IMG/VR virus record: IMGVR_UViG_3300030521_000001
Location: 1 to 57,300 of that record
Direction: 5' to 3' (one strand)
Origin: a virus
DNA length: 57,300 nucleotides
Shown here: positions 878 to 27,417 of the stretch, one piece after another
Position numbering within the stretch: the stretch's first letter is position 1
Layout of the letters: each line of letters starts with the position of its first letter
Program-made: the position numbers and the translations under genes
Notes under the pieces: generated by a model
What the model was told of the DNA's origin: nothing
Seen by the model: the letters and a program-made list of their open reading frames with translations, nothing else
The model's database searches: none

Positions 878-3800
878 ATGCTGAAGGCGCTTAAGTCCAT
901 CCTGTTCGGGGCGATGCTGGGGGTGATCATCCCTAGTCTGGCGTTTGGTCAGGCTACTCTGTTACCGGATGCCAATCAGCGGTATCTGAATGATACAGGC
1001 CAGCCGGTAGCCAATGGAACTGTGGGGTATTACATCCCGAACACGCTGACTAAGAAGACCATTTGGCAAGATTCGGGCAAAGTCACGGCGCAGACTAATC
1101 CGGTACTGCTAGACGCCGGAGGCAAGCCCCAGCCGGCAGGGCAGACTTACGGCGACGGGTCATACCGACAAATAGTCAAGGACTCCAACGGCGTTCAAAT
1201 TTGGGACTCCGTCACCACGTCTACAGGCAGCGGTAGTTCGAGCGGAGGGTCGGTGTTTTCGGCAGGGGTGCCAGTGGGCACTATCTTGCCATGGGCCAGT
1301 ACTGCACTACCGACCAACTACTTGTATACGGCAGGTCAAGCGGTGTCTAGAACCACCTATGCCCAGCTTCTTACGGCGGTCACTTATCAACAAACGATAC
1401 TGTGTCAGAATGGAGTGGCTACCGTATCAGTGACTACTACGGTGAGCGACGGCACTCCTATCGGTGCGCCCATCGAAGCGTCGTGTTTTGCCCCTGGGAC
1501 TATTGTAAGTTCCAAGGCTTCCGGCATCCTGACGCTTAGCACTAATGCCACCAGCAGTGTTTCCACTGGCATTACCGTGTTCCCGTGGGGTAACGGGGAC
1601 GGTTCCAGTACTTTTAACGTACCTGATATACGGGGCCGCGTCCTGGCGGGGCGTGACAACATGAACGGGTCCATCGCCGGGGTGTTGAGCAGCACTTATT
1701 ATTTGACGCCTGGAGGTGTCGGGGTGAACCCTGACGCACTAAACGCTGTAGGCGGCAGTCAGTCCTGGGTAACTACTCTAGCGCAACTACCGACTGGGAT
1801 CAATTCGTCCGGCAGCAACAATCTGACGGTTACGTCTACGGTCAACGGCATTCCGACTAACGCTATACCGACCGCTTCCTTGCCCACTAGCGGAAGTGCC
1901 ACCGGCATTTTAGGCCCAAGTTCCGGTGGGTCACCAGTGGTGGTGGGGGCTGTTACTTCTACCAATACTCAAATAATTAACGTGGCTTCCACCAATACGT
2001 CGGGTTCCCCTCACCCTTCTGTGCAACCAACATTGACCGCCGACCACATCATCAAGGCTCTACCTGACACGGGAGGTTCAGGCTTGACCGGCGTCACTGA
2101 CGGCGTGTTGTACAACAATGCGGGGTCCCCGGGGGTCACGGCGGCTGGTCTAGACGGGCAATTGTTCCTGGGGGTCACGGGTTCGCCGCCACAGATGGCG
2201 ACCATGTCGCAGGATTGCGTCATCACCAATGCCGGAGCGATCACGTGCACCAAGACCAACAACGTAGCTTTCGCGCCTAGCGCTACTACGGACGCCACCA
2301 ACGCTAACAATATCACATCTGGGGTTTTGACTCCAGCAAGGCTGCCCCTGGCTACTAACGCCGCAAAAGGTGCGATGGAGGGGGACACTACTACTATCAC
2401 CTGCGTAGCGGGTGTGTGTACTGCCATAGGGGCGGTGGCGTCGTCGATCGGCGTAGGCACCACCACCGTGTCTACTGCCACTTCGGGCTATTGTCTGACC
2501 GTGGGGGCCACTCTCAGTAATGCCCCTTGTGGCGTTTCCACCCCCCAAGGGCGGCTTACGCTGGCCTCGGGCCAGGCCGAAATGGTCGCCGATGCAGTCG
2601 GTGTTCAAAATCTGTGGTACGCCCCCGACGTAGGGGGCAGCCTTAACTATTTCAACGGCACCAGTGTGGCAGTCTGCAGTTTCACCAGTTCCGCTACCGA
2701 TCAGGTCGGCCTGTTGCTCGCGCTCGGCGGCTCGGCGAATTGGGCAGCCGATAGTATTCATGACGTGTTTGCCTATTGGACAGGTTCAGCCTGCGCACTG
2801 GCGACCCGAGCGTGGGACGCCTCGATGCTGCCCTCGGCGCCCGCGCTGATTACACCGATCGCGACGGCGGTAGTGACCGGCACTACGCCGACAGCGTGGA
2901 CCCGGCCAAATGCAGCGTTTGACGGCACTACGGTTAAGGTCGGCACGTCGTCGGCGACCATTCCGTCCGGTTCGGTCAATGCCAACGCCGCTAACTGTCT
3001 GGGTCAAGACTACGGCGTCGGCAATACCAACACCGTCACACAGCTAGTCGTCACCGCCCCCACGGATCATTTCATCTATGGTAATTTCGGGTTCATTGAT
3101 TTTCAGACATCGGTCTCCTCTGACGGCACGAACTGGTTCCTGACCAACGTAAACTGGATCAACGACACCGCCTTCGGCAATTCCTACACACTACCGTTGA
3201 ACACGACGGGGGTGGGTCCGTGGCGGTTCATCCGCACTTGTTTTGACGGCATGGGGGACACCACCCGGAGCCTGTTCATCGCGCAGATTCAATATTACAA
3301 TGTCACCGCAGCATCTACGCGGCGCTTGGTACGCTACACGGGCGTAGGGCTGGTCAACGACGCAACGATGGGAACTGCCCGGATTAGTTCGTCCTCTACG
3401 ACCAGCATACCACAGTATCAAGGGACCTACCTAGGTTCGATTCACATCGATACCGCGAGTACTGGTCAGATCACTTGCCATGTTCAGTCGTTCGGCGCGT
3501 CGCGAACTTGCGGCATCTGGAACGCGTACCCAAGCACGCAACGATGGATTACGCTGCAGGCGGGTATCTACGATACGGCGAAAAACTACACGGTGACGTC
3601 ACCAGGGTGGGCGGCATGTGAGGGGTCCAGTACTTTTGGTCTACAAGTGTTTACTGGGATGGCGGTCGAGCCGGTCGACGTGTCGGCGCTCCGCAACGTG
3701 GTGCTGAACAGCATAGGCGGCGCGGCGTCCTACGAGTACGGTCTTGGGGTCAACATTGGGTCCAGCACAGCCGTAACTAATTCGTTTTCAGGCACGCAAA

Positions 3801-6633: not shown

Positions 6634-8175
6634 TTACTTGCGCTCCATATTGACCAGTACCAGTTCGCTCTTGGCGCGGGTGTACGCCACGTACTGCAGG
6701 TTGCGCTCCTGCTCAAGCTGCCAGTCTTGACGGGCATATGACGACGGCATGTAGAGATTCTCACCCATCAGGAACACGCGCTGCCACTCGCGGCCCTTGG
6801 ACTTGTGGACGGTCGACAGCGTCAGCGTCTTGCGCCGCTCGCCGTCCGCGTCCTGGAACATGTCGGTGATCTTGTCCTTGAGTTCGTCGACGGTCTTGAC
6901 GGCGTCGGCGATGACCAGCACGGTGTCGACCCGGTCCTGAATAGCCTGCGCCTGGGTCTCCCGGCCTTTCGCGTTGAGTTTCTGCACCTGTTGCTCACAG
7001 TAGGCCGTCATGCGGTCGCGCAGCGCCGGAAGGCTCTTGGCGGACGAGAAACGGTCTATCAGCTTGATCAGGCCGGCGCCGATGTCGCGACCCTCGACGT
7101 GGCACGGAATGCCGCGCTTGATTAGCTGAAATGCAGTTTCGACCAGGGGCTTGGTGTTGCGGCAAAGGATGGCGTCGTTAATCTGGTCGAACGCCTCTTC
7201 AGTCTGTCCGGCCATACGGTAACCATCGATACGCTGCCAGAACACTTGCTCGTCAGTATTTACCACGGTCCCTTCCGGCGCCGTCTCGTGCGCCTCGATG
7301 TGGCTCACGACTTCCCGCGCCTTGGCGACGACGGCCTGGGGGCAACGGAACGTTACGGTCATCGGGAGTTCGACGCAGTTGAACTGCTTGATGGTCTGCC
7401 CGATGCTGTCGTTATCGGCCCCGGTGAAGCCGTAGATCGCCTGATGACGGTCACCGATGAAGAAGGCGCGGCCGTTGGACTTAAGCATCTTGCGGGCCAG
7501 CGCGCGACGGGCTGGATTGGCATCCTGCCACTCGTCGCCGATCACCCAATCATTGCCGAACATTCGCACCCCGGTCACCACCGGCAGCCAGATCATGTCG
7601 TCGAAGTCGATGATTTCAGAACCCATGTCCTTGTGCCATTGCAGGCCCTTGACGGTGTATTCGACGCCGGCTTTGATCAGGCCCTCGTCCTCGATCTCGT
7701 AGGCAAGGTCGAAATGATCAATAATGTCGTAGTATAACTTTTCGTCAGTCATCGCGCCGTGTAGTCCTACCGCGCGCTGCTTGGCCAGCGAGATCAGCTT
7801 GGACGTGAATGTCTGCAACGACTTGGGAACCTGAAGCGCGACGTGCATCATGTCGGACTTCTCGCGGGCGGCCTCGGGGCCGGCCTTGACGTTCTTGTAG
7901 GCGTAGCGCCAGGCGCCGAACCCGAACGAGTGGCAGGTGCCGAACCGAACTCGGTTGCCGAAGTTCAGCTTAAGTTCCCGCGCCTTGGTCTCGAACTCAA
8001 GGGCTGCCGACTTGTTGTAGGCCATCACGGCGACGGAACCTTCGGTCTCGGCAATCATGAACATCGCGGTAGTGGTCTTGCCGGCGCCGGCCACTGCCTC
8101 GCCGAAGCCCGAGCCCCGGTGGGTGTGGGGGAAATTGCGGACGACTTCCTGCTGGGGGGAAAGGGTCTTAGTCAT
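6634..8175 (-). CDS. UvrD/Rep/PcrA-family (SF1) DNA helicase.
   Basis: 513 aa. Walker A GEAVAGAGKTTTAM; motif II IGDEWQDANP; motif III FIGDRHQAIYGFTGAD; motif VI LSTVHKSKGREWQRVFL. Preceded by a promoter and the CATATAGGAG leader. Confidence 0.85.
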   Translation of the reverse strand: MTKTLSPQQEVVRNFPHTHRGSGFGEAVAGAGKTTTAMFMIAETEGSVAVMAYNKSAALEFETKARELKLNFGNRVRFGTCHSFGFGAWRYAYKNVKAGPEAAREKSDMMHVALQVPKSLQTFTSKLISLAKQRAVGLHGAMTDEKLYYDIIDHFDLAYEIEDEGLIKAGVEYTVKGLQWHKDMGSEIIDFDDMIWLPVVTGVRMFGNDWVIGDEWQDANPARRALARKMLKSNGRAFFIGDRHQAIYGFTGADNDSIGQTIKQFNCVELPMTVTFRCPQAVVAKAREVVSHIEAHETAPEGTVVNTDEQVFWQRIDGYRMAGQTEEAFDQINDAILCRNTKPLVETAFQLIKRGIPCHVEGRDIGAGLIKLIDRFSSAKSLPALRDRMTAYCEQQVQKLNAKGRETQAQAIQDRVDTVLVIADAVKTVDELKDKITDMFQDADGERRKTLTLSTVHKSKGREWQRVFLMGENLYMPSSYARQDWQLEQERNLQYVAYTRAKSELVLVNMERK

Positions 8176-8240: not shown

Positions 8241-8737
8241 GTAATATCGTGCCATTTGATAACGTCCCGGCAAAAGGCTAAGAGTTGGGCGTCCGTCCCT
8301 GAGTTCCTAGCACTGTTGGCTTGCCAAGTCACCAATCGTATATTTCGGATCGTGTAACCTTTACGTTGGTTCTTACGGTCTATCGACAATGAGTCCAAGG
8401 AATGTTTACCCTTTAGACACAATTGGCGGCCAGTCAGAACGCACAGGCCGTTTTGCCTGTAGTACAACGCCTCTAATTGTTCGAAAGTTAGATTGCACGG
8501 CGTGACCCCCGCAGTGCGCGTCCTTAACCGGTGTAGCTTAGCTTTTAAGTATCCGCGCAGTGTGTTCTTCCATGCTCGTTGCAAGTCCCGCATCCGGTTA
8601 GGGTTGTTAGTTCGCCATTCTTTGCCCCGTGCGTTAGCCCGTTTCTTGTTTGCCGCGTAGTACCGGTTATTGCGATCGTTGATCGCCGCCTTGTTGGTGA
8701 CGTAATACTTGTGTTGCTTATCCGATAGCTTAGACAC
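8237..8737 (-). CDS. HNH-like endonuclease or Zn-ribbon DNA-binding protein, free-standing between two helicase genes.
   Basis: 166 aa, very basic N-terminus with repeated KYY/RYY..N motifs. C-terminal GLCVLTGRQL...SLSIDRKNQRKGYTIRNIRLVTWQANSARN resembles degenerate HNH/endonuclease VII motifs. Confidence 0.4.
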   Translation of the reverse strand: MSKLSDKQHKYYVTNKAAINDRNNRYYAANKKRANARGKEWRTNNPNRMRDLQRAWKNTLRGYLKAKLHRLRTRTAGVTPCNLTFEQLEALYYRQNGLCVLTGRQLCLKGKHSLDSLSIDRKNQRKGYTIRNIRLVTWQANSARNSGTDAQLLAFCRDVIKWHDIT

Positions 8738-10145
8738 GTTTGCGTTTCCTGACTTCCGCCACTAGCTCGTCCATGATACTAGCAACGTCTTTTTTCCGAG
8801 TCAAGGCTTTGATGACCAGAGCATCCATGGGGCTGGACACCAAGTCATAAATATTACAATCAGTATCCTGCGCCCCCCGGTGGTTTCGGTCTTCCATCTG
8901 TGCGCGCCAGTAATACGAATAATCAGATTCGAAAAAAATCATTGTACTACAGCGGTCGCGCCCCGCTTGCCCGATCAAGGTGTGGCCGCGCGCCGTGGCG
9001 TCCTGTTGCCCGAGGCAGACCCGGCACTTGGATTCGTCGTTAAACATTCTCTTTTGTTCGGTAATCGCCGTAGGCGACATTCCGCCCTTGATCCACGCCG
9101 GGTTACATCCCGCCTCTGATAGTGCCGTGTACAACATTTCGCCGCAGGCCTTGTAGTAATAGCTGACTATTACCTTGCCGGGGGAGGTGCCGATGATGTC
9201 AAGCGTCGCCTTAAGCTTGGGGTTGTCCTTAGGCGTCTCGAAGAAGTAATATTTGCCCTGGTCGAGCAATACGCAGCTTGAAATCTGACGCAGTTTGTTC
9301 ATCTGCGCCAGGATGATTTCCACCGAGATCTCGTCGCCATCGACGATGGCGTAAAATTCCTGCATCATCGTTGTATAGTGCTCGATCTGGCGCCGGCTCA
9401 TCTCCAGGTGCACCGAAGTGTAGATCTTGGGTGGCAGGTCCTTGCGCCAGTCCTTCTTCAGCGCGCGGAAGGTACAGGTGTCGAGGACCCGTGCCAGTTC
9501 CTCCTCGTTGCGAACGCCGACCACCTGCTTGCCGAGGAAGCCTCCCATCTCGGCGAAGCGATTGCGGAACACCACGGGTTCCATACCGTTGAACTGACCA
9601 AGACAGCGTAATTGACCAAAGTAGTCTCGCACGTCCTGCGTCAAAGGTGTGCCATTTAATTCCCGCACCATTTTGGCGCGCTTGGCTAGTTCAAGCACCG
9701 CCTTGAACGTGGACGTCGCCGGATTCTTGACGGCGGTAGACTCGTCGATGGTCAACATGCAACGGCGTTGATCGAACAGTTTAATCAGTTGCTTAAGCGT
9801 GTCCTTCTCGCGCACGGCTTCGTAGTTGATCGCATACTGACAATACTCCGCATCGAACGGTAATGGATATTTCGGCCAGTAGCCAGTGGGTACCCACGGC
9901 ACGCCCCATTCTTCCGGCGCCAGCGCCCAGTCCTGCTTGAACGAGTTCGGTACCACCACTAAATTGATGTCGGTATCGTCGGATTCGATGAATTCGTTAA
10001 GCGTCAACGCGGTCTTGCCCAGGCCTTGCTCTAACCACTGCCCAAACTTAGGCTTGCCGTGCGAGCGACGCATGGCCTCGGCCTGCACCGCCCAGGGCTT
10101 GTTGCCAAATACGGCGTGCTTAAGGTGCCAGGGGACGGTCATCAT
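8730..10145 (-). CDS. SNF2-family (SF2) helicase/ATPase.
   Basis: Motif I LEQGLGKTALTL; motif II LTIDESTAVKN; motif III LNGTPLTQDVRDYF; motif VI WRAQMEDRNHRGAQ. ATGATG at 10145-10140 chosen as the start. The ORF extends to a TTG at 10214. Confidence 0.8.
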   Translation of the reverse strand: MMTVPWHLKHAVFGNKPWAVQAEAMRRSHGKPKFGQWLEQGLGKTALTLNEFIESDDTDINLVVVPNSFKQDWALAPEEWGVPWVPTGYWPKYPLPFDAEYCQYAINYEAVREKDTLKQLIKLFDQRRCMLTIDESTAVKNPATSTFKAVLELAKRAKMVRELNGTPLTQDVRDYFGQLRCLGQFNGMEPVVFRNRFAEMGGFLGKQVVGVRNEEELARVLDTCTFRALKKDWRKDLPPKIYTSVHLEMSRRQIEHYTTMMQEFYAIVDGDEISVEIILAQMNKLRQISSCVLLDQGKYYFFETPKDNPKLKATLDIIGTSPGKVIVSYYYKACGEMLYTALSEAGCNPAWIKGGMSPTAITEQKRMFNDESKCRVCLGQQDATARGHTLIGQAGRDRCSTMIFFESDYSYYWRAQMEDRNHRGAQDTDCNIYDLVSSPMDALVIKALTRKKDVASIMDELVAEVRKRKRV

Positions 10146-10359
10146 AATCTCGGCAGATTTCAAAATACCAGGCTTTAGTATCAAAACCGTGTCCACTGAC
10201 TCTGGTGGATTCAAACCAGTACTGCCGCTCCGCCGTGGGGGGACCCAATTTGCAGTGTACTGCTTTTTCCACCAACATACTTTGCATCAGGTCAACTACC
10301 GTTTCCGCAGGCGCCTTGTCGTTGTCCGAACACCACCGTACGAAGTGTGTAATGGTCAT
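10120..10359 (-). CDS. Hypothetical protein (79 aa), translationally coupled to datZ.
   Basis: Its ATG overlaps the datZ stop (ATGA at 10356-10359). No recognisable motif. Confidence 0.45.
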   Translation of the reverse strand: MTITHFVRWCSDNDKAPAETVVDLMQSMLVEKAVHCKLGPPTAERQYWFESTRVSGHGFDTKAWYFEICRDYDDRPLAP

Positions 10360-10958
10360 GTTATTCCTGTCGATCCGTATTTCCAGTGCGCTTGCAGCGC
10401 CGGGTAGATCTGGTCATTCCATTGCGCGCGGTGAGCGGTCAGGTCGCCGCCCTCGTGAATTAACTCTCCCAATTCGTGCCAGGCCACGACCAGGTTTTCC
10501 ATCGCGTCCTGATGCAGCGGCGCCAACACGGTGTTGCCCATACGTTGTTCCAGGATCAGAAATATGCAGGCGTCGACCTTGTCGGCGACCCTGACGATCT
10601 TGGCGATGCTGTCACCCCACATGCTTTCGTAGATCGCGTCGAGTTGGGCTTCGACCCCCGGCAGTCGTTCCTTCATCTGTTCGGTCACGAAGTTGGACAG
10701 TGCGCCGGGGTCGACGATCTGCTTCTTTACCGGTGAGATGACGTCGCCGGTAAAGGTCTCCTCGATGTCGTGCATCAGCGCCGCGAAGGTCAGGTCGGCG
10801 TATGGCCCCGGCCACTCGATCAGCCGCGCGACCTGCAGCGCGTAGTAAGAAACATAGAACGAGTGCTCGGCGACGCTGTCCTTGTTGAAAGTACGTACGA
10901 TGGACCAGCGCTGGACCACAGAGGCGGTGCGAAGTTCGGGGGGGAAAAGGGTGTTCAT
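10356..10958 (-). CDS. datZ: HD-domain dNTP triphosphohydrolase, DatZ-like (dATPase of Z-genome phages).
   Basis: 200 aa. HD-superfamily metal motif H..(AEHSFYVSYYA)...LMHDIEETFTGDV, YfbR-like. ATGA overlap with mazZ. Third gene of the purZ-mazZ-datZ operon. Confidence 0.7.
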   Translation of the reverse strand: MNTLFPPELRTASVVQRWSIVRTFNKDSVAEHSFYVSYYALQVARLIEWPGPYADLTFAALMHDIEETFTGDVISPVKKQIVDPGALSNFVTEQMKERLPGVEAQLDAIYESMWGDSIAKIVRVADKVDACIFLILEQRMGNTVLAPLHQDAMENLVVAWHELGELIHEGGDLTAHRAQWNDQIYPALQAHWKYGSTGIT

Positions 10959-11314
10959 GGTTCCTCGCTCATAATCTCGGCCGACGTAATAATGCGGTTC
11001 CGGGCCTTGACCCTCGCCAGCAGCTTGTCGCGGATGATCAGCGCAAAATTTGCGATATCAATGCATTCCTTGGCTGCCTCGGCCTCGCCTAGGAACTCGT
11101 AAGCCACGTCGAACTCCATCAGTTCGATCTTGAGCAGTTTGATGTGCGCCTCGATCGGCTGGTCATGCCAGCCGGTCTTGTGATCGTTCTTGCGAAGCTT
11201 GGTCTCCATGGCCAAGGCAAATTCGGCGACTTCACGCCGAATTACGTGTGTAGACCGGTCATCGAGACTAATGAAACAAACCTTGTCGGTGATCATGTCG
11301 TGTTCGATAGTCAT
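10955..11314 (-). CDS. mazZ: MazG-like all-alpha NTP pyrophosphohydrolase, MazZ-like.
   Basis: 119 aa from the internal ATG 11314, which overlaps the purZ TGA (ATGA). Acidic helix motifs EVAEFALAMETKL, ELMEFDVAYEF, ECIDIANFALIIRD are typical of MazG-type enzymes. Confidence 0.65.
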   Translation of the reverse strand: MTIEHDMITDKVCFISLDDRSTHVIRREVAEFALAMETKLRKNDHKTGWHDQPIEAHIKLLKIELMEFDVAYEFLGEAEAAKECIDIANFALIIRDKLLARVKARNRIITSAEIMSEEP

Positions 11315-12414
11315 AGTTTGTCTCCGTCGATGATGTCGTCCGTCGTCGGCCCCCAGGCCGTGACGACCTGGGTGCACTCGTTGCGCCGGCCATACTTGTT
11401 GCAGAGTTCGCGCACCTTGGCGACTACCGTCTTGGCCAGTTCCTTGTTCGGCAAGTAGTCCATGAACGAGACGTAGACGACGTTCGGCCGGGTCTGCGCG
11501 ATCGCCTCGTAGACCTGCTGTTCTGAGAACGTAAACACCCTACGGATACGCTTGGTGACGGTAGTGATCTCGGCCGCGACGCCAAGTTCGTCCCAGGTGA
11601 TCTCGTGCTGGTCGGGAAAACAACCACCGGAATAACCATTTTCGTGCATGTTACGTGCTTCGTTGAGACTGCCGACTTTGATCGGAAAAGTGCGAATGAC
11701 CAGCATCGACCGGTGATAGAAGTGCGGGTGTATCCCGGCGTCGCTCATCGCCTGACCCACGGTGCAGTTGCGCGACGTAGTGTAAGGATAGAAGGGGCCG
11801 TCCACGGACAGCGAATGACCCTGCGGCACCTCGACCAGCACGGACTTGCCGGTAAGCATCTCGGCGTTCAAGTCGATGCGATGAACGAATTGCTGCAGTT
11901 TGTGTATTTCAGGACCGTACCAGTGCACCGGGTTGACCAGGTCCTTGGCCAGGAACCCCGATCGCAACACCTTGCGCGACAGCGCCTCGCCGACGCCTTT
12001 CCGGGTCGAGGCTATCTTAGTCTGCGCGCTGTCGTCGCGCATTTCGGCGGTCTTGCAGTCCGGCGTGATGATCGCGGCGTTGGGGTGAATGGCCAGTCCA
12101 TTGTGCAGGACTTGGGGATTTTCATCTAATTCTCTGAGTAGGATTTCGGGATCAATCACGCTCCCTGCGTTTAGATAGGTAATACACGGCCGGTATAGTG
12201 AATAAGTCGGCAGGTGAAACACCACCTTGGTCACACCGTCGTGGGTCGAGGTGTGACCGGCCTGAGCCCCGGCATTTGTTGTTGCAATGTCGAAGGGCCG
12301 TAGCATCGGGGCCTTGGTCGCTAGCCACGCCGCCGCCGCACCCTTGCCCTCGGAACCCCACTGGCCACCGAGAAGGAACGAGGCCTTGCCCGGCTTGGAA
12401 AAGAAATCGATCAT
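11311..12414 (-). CDS. purZ: Adenylosuccinate-synthetase homolog, PurZ-like (N6-succino-2-amino-2'-deoxyadenylate synthase).
   Basis: 367 aa, the short PurA-type size. P-loop GGQWGSEGKGA versus PurA GTQWGDEGKGK (Asp replaced by Ser). Other PurA-like motifs: QAGHTS (PurA NAGHT), STRKGVGEA (TTGRGIGPA), VEVPQGHSLSVDGPFYPYTTSRN ([23 protein letters not shown]), EITTVTKRIRRV (GATTGRRRR). Immediately followed by the MazG and HD genes. Confidence 0.8.
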   Translation of the reverse strand: MIDFFSKPGKASFLLGGQWGSEGKGAAAAWLATKAPMLRPFDIATTNAGAQAGHTSTHDGVTKVVFHLPTYSLYRPCITYLNAGSVIDPEILLRELDENPQVLHNGLAIHPNAAIITPDCKTAEMRDDSAQTKIASTRKGVGEALSRKVLRSGFLAKDLVNPVHWYGPEIHKLQQFVHRIDLNAEMLTGKSVLVEVPQGHSLSVDGPFYPYTTSRNCTVGQAMSDAGIHPHFYHRSMLVIRTFPIKVGSLNEARNMHENGYSGGCFPDQHEITWDELGVAAEITTVTKRIRRVFTFSEQQVYEAIAQTRPNVVYVSFMDYLPNKELAKTVVAKVRELCNKYGRRNECTQVVTAWGPTTDDIIDGDKL

Positions 12415-12416
12415 GT

Positions 12417-12785
12417 TCAGCCCTTTTTGTGCCCAATTCTATCAAGTACCAGTGTAGCATAGCCGACTATGTCTTGCCAATGGTCCCTGTGGTTAGGGTC
12501 ACCACAGACAATTCTGCCGATTTTGGTAGCAATCAGGTCTAGAGATTCTTGTTGTACGAACGACAACTGACCCCAATTCGGGCTGCCCCGTACGACAGCT
12601 TTGATAGCTCCGATCGTGGTAGCCATGATCGTGTAGTCACCGTGGGTCACGCCGCGAACCTGCTCGGGGGGCGGTTCATTGGGCCAAGTCTGATACTGAT
12701 GCCCCTTCGGTAACCCCTGCACTATTGCGCACGTCTCCCGGTGCACTTGCCCCGTGCCAGCGCCGCAATCACACTTGGCCAACAT
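12417..12785 (-). CDS. Small Cys-containing protein upstream of purZ; possible MazG-like/nucleotide-binding helical protein.
   Basis: 122 aa. N-terminal CDCG...C cluster, then HGDY..IGAIKAV...ESLDLIATKIGRIV.GDPNHRDHWQDIVGYATLVL, which resembles small phage NTP-pyrophosphohydrolase-like domains. Stop lies 2 nt before the purZ ATG. Confidence 0.35.
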   Translation of the reverse strand: MLAKCDCGAGTGQVHRETCAIVQGLPKGHQYQTWPNEPPPEQVRGVTHGDYTIMATTIGAIKAVVRGSPNWGQLSFVQQESLDLIATKIGRIVCGDPNHRDHWQDIVGYATLVLDRIGHKKG

Positions 12786-13239
12786 TTTTGTACTCCGCGA
12801 AAAGACCCAGCATCGCCCTGATCTTGCCCAACCGCCCGTCCTTGTCCCCTAGTGGGACATGTGACCGCTGCATAACTTGCCATGACGTATGTTCCATGAC
12901 TTCGTACGTGTACAACGCCATTCGCAATGTCTTGATCGGCTCACGGGCGCCCTTGGTCTGGATGAACGACACCACGCCGGTCAGCATTCCGGCCCCGTGC
13001 CACTCCTTCAGGAATTTTCTCTGAGGGGTCGTAACGTCAAGTTCCCAGACATGGTTCTTGGTTCTGTCGGACAATGCAATCTGCTTGGCCTCCAGCCACA
13101 TCGGGCGGCAATTGGGCAGCTTGATGAGGAGATCGACGACGCCGACCAGGAAGCGATTGTTAAGCTTGATACCGGCGCCTCCGACGTCCTTGACGGCGTC
13201 GATGATGAGTTGCTGCATAGCGGTTTCGAGCATGGCCAT
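12769..13239 (-). CDS. PD-(D/E)XK nuclease (VRR-NUC-like or resolvase-like).
   Basis: 156 aa. Motif GVVDLLIKLP....PMWLEAKQ fits D...(E/D)xK. Confidence 0.5.
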   Translation of the reverse strand: MAMLETAMQQLIIDAVKDVGGAGIKLNNRFLVGVVDLLIKLPNCRPMWLEAKQIALSDRTKNHVWELDVTTPQRKFLKEWHGAGMLTGVVSFIQTKGAREPIKTLRMALYTYEVMEHTSWQVMQRSHVPLGDKDGRLGKIRAMLGLFAEYKNVGQV

Positions 13240-13241
13240 GA

Positions 13242-13466
13242 TTATTTGCCCCTACGCCCGTTGTCGTAGTCGTGTCCCGCCAGCCCACACCAGCCGTTGC
13301 CCCGGTATTCACGCCACATCATGCAGCCGGACGCTATGCAACGGGTCTCGTCGTGAACCCCTTGTCCGCCAGGGTTCATGTCGACGTGGTGATTTACAGC
13401 CATCCCGACCGTCAACCCGGTGCGCACCATCGGGCACCACTTGGTCTTGGCTTCGTCTTCAGTCAT
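13242..13466 (-). CDS. Small Cys-rich hypothetical protein.
   Basis: 74 aa. KWCP...RCIASGCMMW motif, common in small phage proteins of unknown function. Confidence 0.5.
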   Translation of the reverse strand: MTEDEAKTKWCPMVRTGLTVGMAVNHHVDMNPGGQGVHDETRCIASGCMMWREYRGNGWCGLAGHDYDNGRRGK

Positions 13467-13671
13467 ACTGGCCGTCCATTGTTTTGCTTAGCATCCTGCC
13501 GCACTCGCCGCAGTAGGTGTACGGCCCGTATCCGCCCCCGGCCAGGCCAAACCCGACTTCCGGTTCGAGGTCGGGATGTTCTGGGCACTTGGCAGGACCG
13601 TCGCGCAATTCTTCGCGGATTTCCGACGCGTCAATGTGTGCGAAATACTTGGCGTCTGGGTCCTTGGTCAT
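13459..13671 (-). CDS. Small Zn-ribbon-like hypothetical protein.
   Basis: Internal ATG 13671 is preceded by GGAGGAG. The longer ORF start (13791) would overlap the polymerase gene. CPEHP...CGECG motif. Confidence 0.5.
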   Translation of the reverse strand: MTKDPDAKYFAHIDASEIREELRDGPAKCPEHPDLEPEVGFGLAGGGYGPYTYCGECGRMLSKTMDGQYD

Positions 13672-13735
13672 TTCTGGAACTCCTCCATCCATTCTGCAAT
13701 ACGCCGGTGTTGGGCGCGTTGCTCTTCTAACGTTG

Positions 13736-15667
13736 TCATTGTTCTGCGCCGAAAGTTGACTCTGCCCAAGTCGTACCTTCCCCCGCGTCAATCCGCATTG
13801 GTACGTCTAGGGGTATCATATCATTGGGTCCAAACCGTGTCATGATGTCTAAACACTCATTATACACTACTCGATGCGCCTCGTCAAACTGGAAATTGAT
13901 CGAGTCATGTACGTTATTGAGCAAATCTACGGGACGTCCCACACTTTCCAAATAATCGTCGATTTCGACGAGCTTGCTTTTCAAAACGTCCGCATTACCT
14001 CCAGACAGGATACGGTTCAATGCTACATACGACAAATCGTGGCGCGGCAAATGGAGTCGGCGACCAAGCAATGTCACCATAAAGCCTCGCTTAACGAAAA
14101 CACGTGACATATTCTGTTGCGCAGTGCGAATTTCTGGCATGGCCCGGAAGTACGCGCGATATTGTTCATCCACTTCTCTAGGGTCGACTTTGTATTTTTC
14201 AACGATAACGCCTTTACCACCACCAGTCAATAGAGTTTGATTTATCCTTTTTCCAAATTCCCTAGCTGCTTTCTTTTGCTTAGCGTCCCAGTCGTCATAG
14301 CCCTTGCTGAGGTTCATGGCCCTGGTGACGCCGGTATGGGCGTCGAACTTGGGGTCATTGCGGTAGCCGTCTAGCAGCACCTTGCAACGTGAATAATAAG
14401 CCAGCAACGTGGGTTCACATTGGCGGTAGTCGGCCTCGGCAAACACCATGCCGTCGTCCGGAACAAACCCACCACGCAGCATCCGGCCTCGTACTTCGTC
14501 GCGCTTGTGGGCCTGCTGCAGGTTGGGGGAATCGCACGACAGCCGGCCGATGATGGTACCGTATTCGTCGCCGCGCATCTGGTTGAAATTGGCGTGCACG
14601 CGTCCGTTCCAGATATGCTGTTCCAGCAGCGGCGTGATGAAGGAATTACGCATATGTACGATACGACGAATCTTGATGATCTCGCGTCCCGGCGCCGACT
14701 TTTCCAACCAGCTTTCGGGGAACGACGGCTTCCTGGTCTTCGGCGTCATCGGCCAGTCGGTCACGCCGTGCTTTTCCATGTACCACTTGACGTCCGACCC
14801 TGCCTGTACCGATGCGTTCTCGGGGTCCGGGAACTCGCGCATCAGTTCTGAAATCTGGCGGTTAAGGTCCTGTTGCAGTTGTTCGAAATAGCTCCGGTCC
14901 ACCTTGATGCCCCGGCATGTCATCCGCGCCAGCACCCGGATCAACCGACTCTCGATGTCGTGTACCTTGGCGAGCGAAGTATAGACCGGCTCGCCGTTGA
15001 CGCGTTTGAACTCCACCTGCTCGTTGATCTTAACCATTTGCGCGTCGCGCAGCTGCCAGGTGGAGGTGCCGTCACCTTCCGCATAATCAGTGGCCATGGC
15101 GTCATCACCACGCAACTTGTAGAACCACCCCATGGACTCGCGATCGCTTTTGATCTCGGGAAATTTTGACCGCAAGTACGCATACATCTGGGCCGCTAAT
15201 TTGGGTTGAACCCCCCGACGCAGACAGCAGGCCTCTAGACTAAATTTACCTCCGAACTCATCGATAAGCGGTTCGTTTATTTGCGTGTCCCAGAACTGAG
15301 GCGCGAAAGCCTGTGTACCGATCAGGCGGTAAACAAACTTAAGGTCAAACCCGCCGATATTATGACCTCCGATTACCCGCCCTTGCCTGAACAACTTGCC
15401 TAGAAGGGCCTTTTCCCACGCGGCCATCTTCCCGTCCCACCCGTGGGCGTCGACAGGGCCATTAACGCCACCAATGTTACCGTTGCCGACGTGACGAACA
15501 GGAAGATAGAAAGAATCTTGTGGTTTGGGGCTAAAAGTAATGACATGCCCGACCACATGGCACCGTTGCCACAAGAGACCAGAAGTTTCAGCGTCATAGA
15601 CTATGTCTCCCTTGTGACTATCGAGGCGGTTCATTACGACTTGCAATTTGCTGGTGATTTGTTTCAT
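13736..15667 (-). CDS. dpoZ: Family-A DNA polymerase with 3'-5' exonuclease domain; candidate DpoZ.
   Basis: 643 aa from ATG 15667 (TGAAATG junction with the upstream gene). Exo I IVYDAETSGL; motif A AEADYRQCEP; motif B region AAREFGKRINQTLLTGGG; motif C NNVHDSINFQ. About 1.3 kb upstream of purZ in the same operon. The PolA call is firm (about 0.9). The DpoZ subfamily assignment is contextual. Confidence 0.6.
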   Translation of the reverse strand: MKQITSKLQVVMNRLDSHKGDIVYDAETSGLLWQRCHVVGHVITFSPKPQDSFYLPVRHVGNGNIGGVNGPVDAHGWDGKMAAWEKALLGKLFRQGRVIGGHNIGGFDLKFVYRLIGTQAFAPQFWDTQINEPLIDEFGGKFSLEACCLRRGVQPKLAAQMYAYLRSKFPEIKSDRESMGWFYKLRGDDAMATDYAEGDGTSTWQLRDAQMVKINEQVEFKRVNGEPVYTSLAKVHDIESRLIRVLARMTCRGIKVDRSYFEQLQQDLNRQISELMREFPDPENASVQAGSDVKWYMEKHGVTDWPMTPKTRKPSFPESWLEKSAPGREIIKIRRIVHMRNSFITPLLEQHIWNGRVHANFNQMRGDEYGTIIGRLSCDSPNLQQAHKRDEVRGRMLRGGFVPDDGMVFAEADYRQCEPTLLAYYSRCKVLLDGYRNDPKFDAHTGVTRAMNLSKGYDDWDAKQKKAAREFGKRINQTLLTGGGKGVIVEKYKVDPREVDEQYRAYFRAMPEIRTAQQNMSRVFVKRGFMVTLLGRRLHLPRHDLSYVALNRILSGGNADVLKSKLVEIDDYLESVGRPVDLLNNVHDSINFQFDEAHRVVYNECLDIMTRFGPNDMIPLDVPMRIDAGEGTTWAESTFGAEQ

Positions 15668-15668
15668 T

Positions 15669-15938
15669 TCACCACCCGTCCCGGTCGCGCGGGTCGCTCT
15701 TCGGCTCGTCGTCATCGTCCATCGCGAAGTCGGTGTCGCCGACGAACTCCTCGTGCAACTTTTGAATCCAGGCCAGTTGCTTCGGCGACACGAACACTCG
15801 TTCGCCATATTCCTTATCCTTGGCGATCATGTCGGTCAGGAAATTGCGCGGCGTTTCCTTCATGCCGCCGACTTCGTCCGCCAGTTCCTCCAACATCTGG
15901 TGGAACCGGGCGTAATCCTGTTCATTAAGTGCGGGCAT
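15669..15938 (-). CDS. Hypothetical acidic protein (89 aa).
   Basis: Internal ATG (MPALNEQDY) chosen; the ORF extends to 16031. Acidic C-terminus DDDDEPKSDPRDRD. Confidence 0.45.
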   Translation of the reverse strand: MPALNEQDYARFHQMLEELADEVGGMKETPRNFLTDMIAKDKEYGERVFVSPKQLAWIQKLHEEFVGDTDFAMDDDDEPKSDPRDRDGW

Positions 15939-16140
15939 CGACTTTCTCCAAAAACCGGTAATCGTAGTATTGGACCGCAGTGCAGCCGTCCCAACGTATG
16001 TTGACGAAACACTTACGGGGATTGTCCTCAACCGTGCCCAGCCGGTCGGGCGGGGTACGGACGTAATGTCTAACGCCCCGGGGGGACAGCCTGACGCGAT
16101 CGGGCTTACGAAACAGGTTGTTCGGGTCGTTGCACATCAT
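15925..16140 (-). CDS. Hypothetical protein (71 aa).
   Basis: ORF in operon context, overlapping its neighbours on both sides. Confidence 0.4.
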   Translation of the reverse strand: MMCNDPNNLFRKPDRVRLSPRGVRHYVRTPPDRLGTVEDNPRKCFVNIRWDGCTAVQYYDYRFLEKVDART

Positions 16141-20494: not shown

Positions 20495-21262
20495 TCACGA
20501 ACCTGTGATTTTATACGCGGCGCCGAAGGCCCTTGCCATGTAGACCGGCACGCCGTCGCCGATAGCTTCATACAAGGCACGCTGCCAGTGTACCTTTCGG
20601 TCCCTGTTTGGGCCGGGGTCGAACCAGTCGGGTATCTTGTACCACGCCCTCGGAATCTTGAATCCCTGATGATACGCGCATTCCTCGACCGTCAACTTAC
20701 GGCCATAGAACCGAGACGCCCGCAGCCGGTCCGACGCACAACCCTTGTACTCGGTAGCTGAAATGCACGGGCAAATGTCCGGTACCCAGCGCCGGTAGTC
20801 GCGGAATATCTTGGGGAACCGATAGTTGCCCCCCACAACACGGTTGCGATTCTGTATCGGGGTCTTGAGGAACTGGGCAGCATTGTAGGTGAAACCCCAC
20901 TCGTTGCCCTTGCTGCCCTGTATGGTGACGTTCTCAACCCACACCACCGGACACTTGCCGTCCAGGTTATCGAGGCACCACGGCAGGTAGTCCCTCTGGT
21001 ATTCAAGGTTTCGATAACCCCCCTTGCGGGTCAGGTCCTTGATCGCGGTCGAACGCTGGGCGCAAGGCGGTGACGCCCACACCGCGTCGAAACCACGCAG
21101 GTCAAACTTGGTGGCGTCCCCCAGCACGGAATTACCGCTACCTGTCAGTTTCGACAAATGGTGCTTGACCGGGTGAAGCTCGACGCCGACGCATTCATGC
21201 CCGGCCTGTTCAAGGCCAAGACGCGCCAGTCCGGCGCCGTCAAACAGCACTGCTATGCGCAT
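20495..21262 (-). CDS. DNA (cytosine-5)-methyltransferase.
   Basis: 255 aa. Motif I LFDGAGL; motif IV ASPPCAQRS; motif VI VWVENV; motif VIII QNRNR; motif X GDGVPV. Confidence 0.8.
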   Translation of the reverse strand: MRIAVLFDGAGLARLGLEQAGHECVGVELHPVKHHLSKLTGSGNSVLGDATKFDLRGFDAVWASPPCAQRSTAIKDLTRKGGYRNLEYQRDYLPWCLDNLDGKCPVVWVENVTIQGSKGNEWGFTYNAAQFLKTPIQNRNRVVGGNYRFPKIFRDYRRWVPDICPCISATEYKGCASDRLRASRFYGRKLTVEECAYHQGFKIPRAWYKIPDWFDPGPNRDRKVHWQRALYEAIGDGVPVYMARAFGAAYKITGS

Positions 21263-24605: not shown

Positions 24606-25166
24606 TCAACCAGCGACGGCATTCTTGCTGCTGACCCGGGCGTGGACGCTACAGTACGATTTCCTTAGTAGCGCCGGCCGTCCGCAGTACATCCCACCGT
24701 CGAGCGGCCAGCGACAGTCGCCGTCTTCCAGGTCCGCGAACGCCACCGGGTCGCACCTAAGCTTCAAATCGACGTTCAGGCTGAAATCAGTGCGGGGCGG
24801 CACCGACTTGGACAGACGCGACGGGCCGAAATTTAACGAGGCCTTCTCGTCGGGAGGCAACGCTTCTACCGCCACGGGCCTGGGCTTCTTCGGCGTGAAC
24901 AGGAAGTCCGCAACCGCCACAGGCCTGGGCGGCTTTGGCTTGCGGGCCGGCCGATACTTACACGTGGCGGGGTCGTATTTGCCGTTCACGTGCCGGTGCC
25001 GCGCGCCGATCACGGCGTTGCGAGTAATCCCCGTGGTGTTGAACTCTTCGTTCAAGGTCACGGCGATCTGGGCGTCGGACGTGCCGGCCTTGTATAATTC
25101 CTTCAACCGGTCGATGGCGCCTTCGCGCTTCCAGTTAAAGTCGAGCTTGCTAAAAGTCTGGCGCAT
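24606..25166 (-). CDS. GcrA-like cell-cycle regulator homolog.
   Basis: 186 aa. N-terminal W..E..IDRLKELYKAGTSDAQIAVTL......GITRNAVIGARHRH; Pro/Lys-rich linker; C-terminal FADLEDGDCRWPLDGGMYCGRPALLRKSYCSVHARV. This matches the GcrA architecture. Confidence 0.75.
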   Translation of the reverse strand: MRQTFSKLDFNWKREGAIDRLKELYKAGTSDAQIAVTLNEEFNTTGITRNAVIGARHRHVNGKYDPATCKYRPARKPKPPRPVAVADFLFTPKKPRPVAVEALPPDEKASLNFGPSRLSKSVPPRTDFSLNVDLKLRCDPVAFADLEDGDCRWPLDGGMYCGRPALLRKSYCSVHARVSSKNAVAG

Positions 25167-27417
25167 TAGTTTCCCTCGCTGGCGTCCCGCTCTCCGTCTG
25201 TTCAGGCCAGTTTATCACCTGACCCACATACTTGTCAAACCCCTTGCGGCACTGGTCGAGCGGCGGGAAGTCGATCCACGACAGTTGACGATTACTTAAC
25301 AACGTCCACGACTGCGGGATGCCAAGTTCTCCAACCAGTTCGTTGGAATAGTCGCGCTGGTAGCGCTGGATTGAGCGCCCAATCATCTTTTCAAGGGTCT
25401 GGTTAAACGCGGCGGGGTTAGGGATGTTGCGCACGCCGCGATTACGCAAGGACACTTCCATTGCGGCGTACAGCGCGGGTGAACCGACGACGCGCGGCCA
25501 GTCCTTCTTGCTGTCCTGCGCCCAGTTAAGTCTATCCGGCAGCAACAGCCCCGATAGCAGCGTTTCCATCCACCAGGCGTCGATCGGGGGCAGGTTCTGC
25601 GCCTTAAGATCCGACAGTGACTTGTTCTTGACGTTTGATCGTGCCAGCTTGGCGTCGTAGTCGAACTCCAGCAGGTACCTGAACAGTGCGGCCGGACCAC
25701 CTGCGTCCTTCTCGGCCACTACCTTGTCGATCAGGTCGTCCGGGGCCTTGCGCTGGTCCATGTCGATCACGGTGTAACGACGGTCGCCGGGCATCACGGG
25801 AGCGGCAAGATGGTTTGGGTTGCACAGCATGATCAGACGCAGAAAGTTGCGCACTCTGGTGGCGTCAATGCCCTTGGGCTCGGCCATCCGGAACTCATCA
25901 GTGATCAAAGACCGGATGATTGAGGCGTGCTTTCGATCGCCGCCGTATAGTGCTTCTTCGGAATGCAGCAACAACGTCCCGGCCAGATGCCGATTGAACG
26001 ACCCAGTCAAGTGTTTGTCCTGCGTCACAACCGTATAGGCAGGTCCGAGGATCACACCAAAATAAGCCACCATCAGCGATTTGCCGGCCCCCTCCGGTCC
26101 GATAATAACGGGTGCGGTCATAGATTTCTTCATCGGCTCGCGTACGATGTTCGCCATCCAGTTGATCAGCCAAAACGCCATCTCCTCGTCGCCGCCGCAA
26201 ATGACGTCGAACACCAGGTCCAGATACGCCTCGCAGCGTGTGTCGTAGTCGTCCCCTTCGTCGGGCCTGATGGCCCACCCACCCCACAGGTTGAGAATCT
26301 TGCCGTCGTCCTCTTCGCCGGGCCTGAAGTCGACGTTGTCGTAAGACCGGCGCCTAGGCGATTTCAGCCATAACGCCGCCTTGGGAATGGTCTTTTCCTT
26401 GCCGTCAATCTCCACCGTGGTGTAGTCGGTCCCCATCTTGTTGAGGAAATCATCCTTCATCATGAAGACGGGGGATTCGCCGGGACCGGCATCGACCGAG
26501 GCAATGCGAAACTTGCCTCCAACCAGGACGCAGGCAAAACGATCATTGTACTCTTGCAACAAGTTAATCGTAGGAGAGCCGGCCCATTCAAGCAGTCGGT
26601 CCACAATGACGTCGTTGTGTAGTTGTTTACGAAGAACACCAGCGCCGCTAATTTTCTTTCCCGCCTCACCGCGTCGGTAAGTAGCACGAACCGTCGGTAA
26701 TCTTGATTTGTCGTCATCGTCGGTATAATCCATCACGGCGTTGATGAGATCTTCCGCCTCGTCGGCCGTCCAGTCGAGATAGAACAGCATGCCGGCCAGG
26801 TGCTTGGCCGGCTCGTTGTGATAGCCGTCCGCCCAGATGTGGCGTACGATGAGAGTAGCGATGGCGACCTTGCGCACGGCGCGGGACAATATGGCCGTGG
26901 TGACGCTGGTCACTTCGGGGAAGGCAAGGTCCGACCATTCAATGGCTTCGCCGGACGTTTCGTGTACGGAACCCGGCATGACGGTCTGATGACCCCCATC
27001 GCCTCGCGCCTCGACGATAGTGGAATCGGCCGTTCGTACTGGATCAATAAACGCTTGCTTGTCGAAATCCGGAGTATCAACCTTGTAAAGATAATGCGAT
27101 CGAGGTTTAGACTTCCGTCCAAACACCGCCGTAGTTGGAGGTAAGAAACGTGCTGCAAAGTAAATGGCTTCATTACAATCACAGTCAATATCGACAGGAC
27201 CGTCAGAGCGGGGCCCAGTAACGATGCCCACGCCATAATTGTTGTCCCTCCACAGTTCGTCGCCGGGTGGTTTGTAACCCGAGGACACGTAGGTTTTGAA
27301 TATGGCAGCCTTGGATTGCGGGTGTAGAGGCACTGGCTTGAAGGAATTTTTACGCAACCAGGCCACCGTCTGGATCACGGCGTCTGATGATGGGAACTTG
27401 ACGACCTGCCTAGCCAA
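25150..27417 (-). CDS. Bifunctional primase-polymerase (AEP/PrimPol) fused to an SF3 (D5-like) helicase.
   Basis: 755 aa. AEP motifs VDIDCDCNEA, SHYLYKV, GHQTVMPGSVHETSGEAIEW. Walker A VIIGPEGAGKSL and Walker B LLLHSEEAL in the C-terminal half. Confidence 0.8.
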   Translation of the reverse strand: MARQVVKFPSSDAVIQTVAWLRKNSFKPVPLHPQSKAAIFKTYVSSGYKPPGDELWRDNNYGVGIVTGPRSDGPVDIDCDCNEAIYFAARFLPPTTAVFGRKSKPRSHYLYKVDTPDFDKQAFIDPVRTADSTIVEARGDGGHQTVMPGSVHETSGEAIEWSDLAFPEVTSVTTAILSRAVRKVAIATLIVRHIWADGYHNEPAKHLAGMLFYLDWTADEAEDLINAVMDYTDDDDKSRLPTVRATYRRGEAGKKISGAGVLRKQLHNDVIVDRLLEWAGSPTINLLQEYNDRFACVLVGGKFRIASVDAGPGESPVFMMKDDFLNKMGTDYTTVEIDGKEKTIPKAALWLKSPRRRSYDNVDFRPGEEDDGKILNLWGGWAIRPDEGDDYDTRCEAYLDLVFDVICGGDEEMAFWLINWMANIVREPMKKSMTAPVIIGPEGAGKSLMVAYFGVILGPAYTVVTQDKHLTGSFNRHLAGTLLLHSEEALYGGDRKHASIIRSLITDEFRMAEPKGIDATRVRNFLRLIMLCNPNHLAAPVMPGDRRYTVIDMDQRKAPDDLIDKVVAEKDAGGPAALFRYLLEFDYDAKLARSNVKNKSLSDLKAQNLPPIDAWWMETLLSGLLLPDRLNWAQDSKKDWPRVVGSPALYAAMEVSLRNRGVRNIPNPAAFNQTLEKMIGRSIQRYQRDYSNELVGELGIPQSWTLLSNRQLSWIDFPPLDQCRKGFDKYVGQVINWPEQTESGTPARETNAPDF

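Follow-up and report, generated by a model that had tools for sequence, protein, structure and literature searches.

A 57,300-nt stretch of viral DNA (positions 1 to 57,300 of IMG/VR record IMGVR_UViG_3300030521_000001, analysed as a whole and called the window here) carries a purZ-mazZ-datZ gene cluster which we consider very probably to be a functional Z-cluster. It would give a genome substituted with 2-aminoadenine (Z) to an uncultured phage that has a P22-like head and is represented by its complete genome of 57 kb. To our knowledge, no other natural DNA has a canonical base replaced throughout in a way that alters the hydrogen bonding of the base pair, as Z-genomes do. A sequence-only reading of the window had proposed a cluster of this kind, and the proposal was borne out by the ranking of best hits, phylogeny, diagnostic residues, gene order and conservation across relatives. 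Its three consecutive minus-strand genes with ATGA overlaps at 10356–12414 were confirmed in the table of open reading frames (ORFs) and in the raw sequence of 10250–12550. The purZ/mazZ junction is an ATGA stop/start overlap at 11311–11314 (...CTATGACT), as is the mazZ/datZ junction at 10955–10958 (...CCATGAAC), and datZ is also coupled by ATGA, at 10356–10359, to a 79-aa ORF. The boundaries of the Z-cluster genes are identical in public gene calls for the same contig.

The 367-aa product of purZ matched PF00709 (E = 4.8e-35) and PHROG 1211, '2-aminooxy adenylosuccinate synthetase' (E = 7e-61), and NF038379 (PurZ) was its best family in NCBIfam. Its top matches in the PDB were phiVC8 PurZ (6FM1/6FKO, 1e-35) and then S-2L PurZ (7ODX, 4e-34), with PurZ0 (7VF6, 8e-24), Pyrococcus PurA (2e-23) and bacterial PurA (1e-17 or weaker) lower down; the corresponding bit scores were 127 and 122 for the solved PurZ structures, 88 for PurZ0 and at most 68 for bacterial PurA. 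Identity was 30–33% to phiVC8 and S-2L PurZ and about 25% to E. coli PurA. The nearest PurZ in GenBank phages, at 38.9% identity, was that of the Ochrobactrum podophage vB_OspP_OH (hereafter OH). Metagenomes held 1,679 homologues at E ≤ 1e-10, including a dense clade 50–72% identical to the window protein on contigs of about 50–68 kb; at least 118 sequences were >50% identical to window PurZ, on contigs of the same size range.

Profile searches and a PurA/PurZ phylogeny had been proposed as checks by the sequence-only reading; both were run, and the 367-aa protein grouped with phage PurZ, not cellular PurA. In neighbour-joining distance trees (200 bootstraps) the window clade had 100% support, and together with classic PurZ and OH it formed a 100% bootstrap group. 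PurZ0 formed a separate clade (99–100%), and all sequences with Ser in the P-loop (Ser-type) stood apart from PurA at 100%. The 100% PurZ grouping was kept with 27 cellular Ser-type homologues in the tree, which fell outside it.

The diagnostic residues point the same way. The P-loop reads GSEGKG in place of the PurA GDEGKG at PurZ residues 20–25, as first noticed, and the accompanying suggestion that an Asp-to-Ser change is typical of PurZ agrees with published counts: all of 147 phage PurZ/PurZ0 sequences (100%) have Ser, whereas 99% of PurA have Asp (PMC12884076). Ser21, which stands for the catalytic Asp13 of PurA, and the TTVT loop were found in 118/118 clade members. With the pocket and aspartate-loop residues of S-2L PurZ as reference (G22, S23, N49, A50, T132, Q190, R240, V241, T273–T276 and R280), window PurZ conserves G20, S21, A52, T137, Q198, V247, TTVT at 284–287 and R291/R292 but departs at two positions, with Gln51 for N49 and Lys246 for R240; R151 is conserved as well. 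These results bear on an alternative in which purZ encodes an ordinary auxiliary PurA that raises the output of AMP, the other two genes of the cluster being unrelated nucleotide-salvage enzymes. Membership of PF00709 would fit that alternative, as would the first annotation of OH, which read the genes as phosphate salvage (PMC7139368). However, Ser replaces the catalytic Asp13, the loop is TTVT and not GxTG, E. coli PurA is distant, the protein is monophyletic at 100% bootstrap with PurZ whose activity has been characterised experimentally, and the conserved synteny of the triad is the published definition of a Z-cluster (PMC8342488). We regard an auxiliary PurA as extremely improbable.

The middle gene had been read as MazG-type. 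Profile and fold methods agreed that it is MazG-like, and its subtype proved to be MazZ-2 (the phiVC8/Ochrobactrum-phage type), not the MazZ-1 of S-2L. Its neighbours are purZ and datZ, each of which it overlaps by an ATGA, and the same slot is filled in relatives. Its product is 34% identical (E = 1e-12) to OH gp33, which is named MazZ-2 in PMC8342488 and which scored 47 bits against the family hidden Markov model (HMM). An hhalign comparison of a 29-sequence family profile with phiVC8-like MazZ-2 gave 95% probability (E = 2.7e-8), and the family profile matched PDB 2P06 (AF_0060) at E = 1.7e-5. The AlphaFold2 (AF2) model of the 119-aa protein was a helical bundle (predicted local distance difference test score, pLDDT, 87.9) whose top Foldseek matches were 2P06 (prob 1.0, TMt 0.73) and the MazG-related Thermotoga 2YXH, with weak E-values of 0.14–0.3; HisE and MazG ranked lower in the list. 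The protein had 61 homologues. E67, E83 and D86 were invariant and E64 was at least 90% conserved (ExxE...ExxD), and these residues correspond to the four acidic ligands described as strictly conserved in MazZ-2 (PMC8342488).

No match to the middle protein was found in Pfam, NCBIfam or PADLOC, or by direct phmmer search of the PDB. The lack of a Pfam match is expected for MazZ-2, since an HMM had to be purpose-built for it in PMC12884076, and the OH and phiVC8-like MazZ-2 proteins likewise have none. MazZ-1 identity was rejected, as BLASTP and hhalign gave nothing significant against S-2L MazZ-1; the same two methods gave nothing significant against the Burkholderia phage slot protein. MazZ-2 is a distant homologue of MazZ, which converts dGTP to dGMP (NAR 2026). 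According to PMC8342488, S-2L MazZ is a dGTPase only, and the MazZ of another Z-phage, by implication, hydrolyses more than dGTP. In the closest relative of the window phage (L004 6385–7200 and L005 6385–7177; PurZ 71–73% identical) the product of the MazZ slot is a divergent MazZ-2-like N-terminus fused to an HNH_3 endonuclease domain, suggestive of a homing endonuclease that inserted into mazZ; a second assembly of this phage has the slot split into two ORFs.

The third gene had been read as an HD-domain phosphohydrolase (datZ), and both family matches and residues support this. The protein matched PF12917 (YfbR-like, E = 1.9e-18), HD_3 (E = 1.6e-10) and PHROG 7076, 'dATP triphosphohydrolase' (E = 7e-19), and was 32% identical to OH DatZ (4e-14, its best pairwise match) and 28% identical to S-2L DatZ (8e-9). 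By raw PDB score OxsA (2.6e-6) and YfbR (4e-6) both ranked above S-2L DatZ (6ZPA, 1.7e-3), so membership of DatZ rests on residues and context. Mapped onto the key residues of S-2L DatZ given in PMC8065100 (listed in the table), all metal and phosphate ligands are kept, K116 as Arg. At the Trp/Ile pair the DatZ proteins of relatives read RWS[IV]. Among YfbR-like proteins in a metagenome study based on restriction enrichment, only those on dZ-modified contigs had the W20-I22 pair (bioRxiv 10.1101/2025.10.22.683976).

Most likely, then, the products of the cluster would reshape the purine deoxynucleoside triphosphate (dNTP) pool of the infected cell, with Z replacing adenine in progeny DNA. By homology, the MazZ-2-type enzyme would cut dGTP, and perhaps dATP as well, down to the monophosphate; PurZ would condense the resulting dGMP with aspartate, using a nucleoside triphosphate as phosphate donor, to N6-succino-2-amino-dAMP. 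Host PurB and host kinases would take this succino product to dZTP. DatZ would convert dATP to deoxyadenosine, with Ile20 predicted to exclude dZTP and dGTP. As DatZ would thus remove dATP and spare dZTP, only dZTP would be left to pair with T, and it would be incorporated by the adjacent family A DNA polymerase (PolA) or by the primase-polymerase (PrimPol). The triad alone turns part of E. coli DNA to Z (PMC8342488). We infer the enzyme activities, the role of the host enzymes and the Z content from sequence.

Several observations, in PurZ, in the polymerase, in the restriction sites of the window and in the literature on OH, weigh against a Z-substituted genome. On NF038379 window PurZ scored 205 bits, under the curated cut-off of 300, while Arthrobacter PurZ0 scored 360, phiVC8-like PurZ 396 and E. 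coli PurA 127; the sub-cut-off score indicates divergence of the sequence and not another family. Position 51 is Gln clade-wide (115/118), where Asn (S-2L N49) is invariant in 12/12 PurZ, PurZ0 and PurA references. Position 246 is Lys in window PurZ only, with Arg in 117/118 clade members and 12/12 references, and the equivalent residue of S-2L PurZ, R240, lines the dGMP pocket. The K246 codon, AAA, is one nucleotide from AGA. For the nearest isolate, OH, PMC7139368 holds no chemical evidence of Z.

A further departure lies in the phosphate-donor pocket, for which N305, F306 and Q308 of S-2L PurZ and F295, N297 and Y298 of phiVC8 PurZ served as reference. Characterised PurZ have Asn and Asn/Gln where window PurZ has S316 and D319. 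In the clade position 316 is T/S in 109/118 members and position 319 is D in 107/118, states which match PurZ0 (T..D) and the PurA guanine-specificity motif T-K-L-D, while N305 and Q308 of S-2L PurZ hydrogen-bond the adenine N6 and disfavour guanine. The adenine-stacking residues F317 and Y320 are kept, and phiVC8 PurZ stacks the ATP adenine with the equivalent F295 and Y298 (bioRxiv 10.1101/2025.10.22.683976). The clade PurZ has a hybrid donor pocket between PurZ and PurZ0/PurA, and its use of phosphate donors may thus differ. It is possible, although we consider it unlikely, that the clade PurZ uses GTP, or GTP and ATP alike, for the same product, with less dATP depleted by the PurZ step; it would then resemble PurZ0 and PurA and differ from characterised PurZ, whose donor is ATP/dATP. 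The PurZ0/PurA states at the two positions where S-2L PurZ contacts adenine N6 favour such a variant, as does the description of ATP/dATP use as a derived PurZ adaptation in the introduction of bioRxiv 10.1101/2025.10.22.683976. However, F317 and Y320 are typical of ATP-using PurZ, window PurZ lacks the NKxD Lys of PurA, an Asp carboxylate could also accept adenine N6 hydrogen bonds, and the sister lineage OH has the classic N..N.

PolA matched PF00476 (E = 9e-40) and PHROG 17 and was 33% identical to OH PolA (4e-84), with exonuclease motifs I–III and polymerase motifs A and C intact. Its motif B reads KRINQTLLTG, which places Gln at the position of E. coli F762 and Thr at that of Y766 throughout the clade; OH PolA has Met and Ser there, and DpoZ has Leu and Phe. 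Gln/Thr at these helix-O positions is unusual for family A polymerases. The change from Tyr to Phe (E. coli Y766, phiVC8 F459) is the sole one common to both DpoZ clades (PMC8599892). The window PolA lacks this Phe, having Thr instead, and is 23–26% identical to phiVC8-type DpoZ and 24% to Klenow. The best PolA family in NCBIfam was phage_DpoZ_1 at 209 bits, far under its 500-bit cut-off. The residue, the identity and the score led us to reject PolA as a DpoZ. In S-2L, whose PrimPol is non-selective, it is the removal of dATP by DatZ that allows full substitution (PMC8065100); thus, a selective polymerase is not required for a Z-genome.

The window also avoids A-containing palindromes: CTCGAG occurs 0 times against 12 expected, GGATCC 0 against 6 and GAATTC 2 against 12. 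Such avoidance is expected even with Z-DNA, because about 47% of the restriction enzymes tested still cut it (PMC12944874). Among other palindromes, CCGCGG was observed 0 times against a Markov expectation of 27, CAGCTG 2 against 11 and AAGCTT 11 against 23.

Lys246, the polymerase and the restriction sites together raise the possibility that the cluster manipulates the dNTP pool while the genome is partly or not substituted, either from a PurZ weakened by the R246K change or from polymerases that do not favour dZTP. K246 stands in place of a near-invariant pocket Arg, PolA lacks the DpoZ hallmarks, and A-containing sites are still avoided. Against this, Arg to Lys is conservative and may be an assembly or strain variant, the remaining catalytic residues are intact and the genes tightly coupled, S-2L is fully substituted despite its non-selective PrimPol, and site avoidance is to be expected in any case. 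We judge a partly substituted or unsubstituted genome quite improbable and favour replacement of adenine by Z. A bolder reading, which we hold to be rather doubtful, would see a third functional flavour of Z machinery in this large uncultured clade, with a hybrid-pocket PurZ that might use GTP or GTP and ATP, and the PolA, with Thr at the universally conserved Tyr766 position of helix O, as an independently evolved Z replicase distinct from DpoZ-1/DpoZ-2.

Table. Coordinates of the Z-cluster genes and other features of the window, with distinguishing residues or family matches. For datZ, the equivalent residue of S-2L DatZ is given in brackets.
Feature	Position	Strand	Details
purZ, succino-2-amino-deoxyadenylate synthase homologue	11311..12414	-	367 aa, start MIDFFSKPGKASFLLGGQWGSEGKG; P-loop G20-S21-E-G-K-G25; TTVT loop 284-287
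mazZ-2-type MazG-like NTP pyrophosphohydrolase	10955..11314	-	119 aa, ATG at 11314; acidic ligands E64, E67, E83, D86
datZ, HD-domain dATP triphosphohydrolase homologue	10356..10958	-	200 aa; R17 (R19), W18 (W20; excludes 2'-OH), I20 (I22; excludes 2-NH2), H32 (H34), H63 / D64 (H66 / D67), E67 (E70), G71 / D72 (G74 / D75), P76 (P79; specificity residue), K78 (K81), R123 (K116; Lys to Arg), D126 (D119)
Conserved small gene adjoining purZ upstream, weakly DUF6378-like	12417..12785	-	122 aa
79-aa ORF, ATGA-coupled to datZ	10120..10359	-	slot poorly conserved
Family A DNA polymerase (PolA) with 3'-5' exonuclease	13736..15667	-	643 aa; strand and gene block common to Z-cluster
SNF2-family helicase, downstream of Z-cluster	8730..10142	-	PHROG 62 E = 2.7e-79; PF00176 in public gene calls
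UvrD/Rep-type helicase	6634..8175	-	PHROG 1967 E = 6e-101; UvrD helicase in same place in relatives
Primase-polymerase (PrimPol) with DUF5906/D5-type domain	25150..27417	-	755 aa; PF09250 E = 4.7e-10, DUF5906 E = 1.2e-17
C5-cytosine DNA methyltransferase	20495-21262		in replication block; PF00145 E = 2e-9

The Z-cluster lies in a minus-strand replication block that runs from about 29 kb to 6.6 kb. In PHROG and Pfam scans this block held the PrimPol/D5-type primase (which also matches PHROG 1156 DNA primase, E = 1.5e-50), the C5-cytosine methylase, Pam3 gp32-34-like genes, PolA, the Z-cluster, the SNF2 helicase, an endonuclease VII/HNH gene and the UvrD helicase. The methyltransferase would suit a Z-genome because its target is C and not A. 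A plus-strand structural block encodes the large terminase, P22-like portal, scaffold, P22-like coat, head-closure protein and tail fibre. Terminator-like sites were fewer than in shuffled sequence, with none convincing inside the gene block, and co-transcription of the Z-cluster gene block is plausible. A sigma-70-like promoter match (TTGACG, 17 nt, TATAAT; 11/12 positions) at 13859–13887 on the minus strand, within the 3' end of polA and upstream of the small genes preceding purZ, could be an internal promoter.

The window makes up nearly the whole of contig ena:ERZ27251613:k141_1190325 (57,314 nt) and has a GC content of 58%. Its ends are identical, positions 1–127 repeating at 57174–57300 (127 nt), and since the contig is 14 nt longer, the full overlap would be 141 nt, the k-mer length of the assembler. 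Such a repeat indicates that the contig assembled as a circle, with the genome complete at about 57,173 bp. No tRNAs were found in the window. A megablast search of 10000–16000 against 50,697 phage records gave no match, and the phage is therefore none of the known isolates.

The order PolA, DUF6378-like gene, purZ, mazZ-2, datZ and SNF2 helicase is common to the window and OH. Relatives with PurZ identities of 72%, 57%, 53% and 52% keep PolA...purZ, the MazZ-2 slot, the YfbR-like gene, a small ORF and the SNF2 helicase, and the family HMM picked up the slot proteins of relatives L017, L019 and L018 at 117–181 bits. The 122-aa gene upstream of purZ matched PF19905 (E = 4.4e-4, below the cut-off) and PHROGs 17775, 16943 and 474, and a DUF6378 protein holds the same slot in OH and in L018. 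Its 16 homologues share an invariant core, with the motif THGDY...ATKIGRIVCGDPNHxDHWxDIxGY; the PHROG label 'phosphofructokinase' on this family is probably a mis-annotation. A relationship with DUF5664 (dGTP_diPhyd_N) was rejected after negative BLASTP and hhalign comparisons. The profile of the 122-aa protein returned only noise from the PDB, and Foldseek gave nothing better than E = 3 for its AF2 model (pLDDT 72.8). On the other side of the cluster, what lies between datZ and the SNF2 helicase varies among relatives, and the 79-aa ORF found there is weakly similar to the equivalent ORF in one relative only (31% identity, E = 3e-6). Relative L017 (PurZ 57% identical; features at 303–659 and 2934–3671) encodes an Acb2/Tad1-hairpin protein of the anti-CBASS/Thoeris sponge family. 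It also has a weak Dam-like (MethyltransfD12) methyltransferase directly after PolA, and an N6-adenine methylase would be odd in a presumed Z-genome.

The phage had been described as a P22-like podovirus. The P22-like coat and portal were upheld, and the description holds for the head genes only; the podovirus morphology we infer. Coat and portal matched PHROG 283 (5.7e-49) and PHROG 156 (2.9e-89), and tblastn searches with them found records annotated 'P22 coat protein' and 'P22 like portal' together with 89 Salmonella phage records. The best match for coat and portal was Pseudomonas phage PAE2 (55% and 44% identity), followed by Acetobacter phage phiAX1. PHROG scans of the large ORFs gave no tape-measure, tube or sheath match, the tail module not having been analysed systematically, and a podovirus tail is plausible. 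An alphaproteobacterial host is hinted at by the nearest replication and Z genes, which are those of an Ochrobactrum phage, by Acetobacter as the second-best head match, and by depletion of GANTC, the CcrM/HinfI site (81 observed against 136 expected, Markov model, whole window), whereas the best head match, a Pseudomonas phage, hints otherwise. In GTDB genome scans the single-protein scan found no relative and the alignment scan only relatives at ≤37% identity, a different cellular family, and no related prophage was found; these matches give no clue to a prophage or host.

Z-genome enzymes serve to make Z-DNA in synthetic biology. With this contig a large, uncultured lineage that has a P22-like head gains a complete genome, and its clade variants (Q51, S/T316 and D319) are natural test cases for the choice of phosphate donor by PurZ. 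The Thr766-type PolA is a test case for what a polymerase needs to copy Z-DNA. Because window PurZ falls under the NCBI cut-off, automatic annotation can be expected to call it plain 'adenylosuccinate synthetase' and to miss the modification.

PurZ-like features also occur outside phages. Bacterial or archaeal chromosomes yielded at least 79 PurA-like genes with GSE[GA]KG (L021–L100, GTDB genome contigs), a widespread cellular family with members such as L088 3434–5107 (Pseudomonas putida 700447) and L068 3995–5050 (Pirellulaceae SH501). Like window PurZ, these cellular Ser-type proteins have the altered P-loop, are short (about 340 aa) and often have a T[TS]VT loop, and they are 31–38% identical to it. 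Unlike window PurZ, they lie outside the phage PurZ clade and all have Asn at the equivalent of position 51. Some are about 550 aa long, with an N-terminal AAA_18 kinase-like domain; the neighbours of L088 are AAA_18 kinase, DUF7002, NUDIX, PIN-TPR-GreABC and integrase genes. No PADLOC model matched these proteins, and no DatZ or MazZ-2 was found within 4 kb of the genes. Thus, the Asp-to-Ser change alone is not a marker of a Z-genome.

PurZ0 uses GTP as donor. The PurZ0 systems of the Actinobacteria phages Wayne and Ghobes (PMC12884076) resemble the window in the Ser P-loop, the T-T-V-T loop and the T and D donor-pocket states. In contrast to window PurZ, PurZ0 forms a separate clade, is without the SGGxxPDQxE segment, and is partnered by DutZ, DmtZ and DUF5664 and not by DatZ/MazZ-2. 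One sentence of PMC12884076 has the donor of PurZ0 the other way round.

The Z-clusters of phiVC8 and S-2L, with PurZ 6FM1/7ODX, DatZ 6ZPA and a 7ODY-type MazZ (PMC8342488, PMC8065100), share with the window the order purZ-mazZ-datZ, the PurZ Ser P-loop, the TTVT loop, the F/Y stacking residues, the DatZ metal ligands and the Trp/Ile pair, and phiVC8-like MazZ-2 is a detectable homologue of the middle protein. Unlike the window, S-2L has MazZ-1 (PF04447), which is unrelated at the sequence level, but like the window and OH it has a PrimPol. phiVC8 DpoZ has Phe459 and Leu455 where the window PolA has Thr and Gln.

The closest known system is that of OH (Wolominvirus), which appears among the Z-cluster phages in PMC8342488. 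Its gene order is PolA, small gene, nuclease-like gene, DUF6378 gene, purZ, mazZ-2, one extra gene, datZ and helicase. OH, a podovirus by electron microscopy (PMC7139368), resembles the window in its MazZ-2 type and its PrimPol, and it has the nearest PurZ, DatZ (32%), MazZ-2 (34%) and PolA (33%) in the phage collection. The two differ in that their proteins are only 32–39% identical, with no DNA similarity, and that mazZ and datZ are separated by the extra gene in OH. At 41 kb OH is smaller than the 57-kb window, and its structural module differs from that of the window, which has a P22-like coat and portal. In OH PurZ, Asn at position 51 goes with the classic N..N donor pocket, unlike the S/D pocket and Q51 of window PurZ. 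Z-clusters of this kind are already well described, MazZ-2 podophages included, and what is new here is a divergent member from a large uncultured clade.

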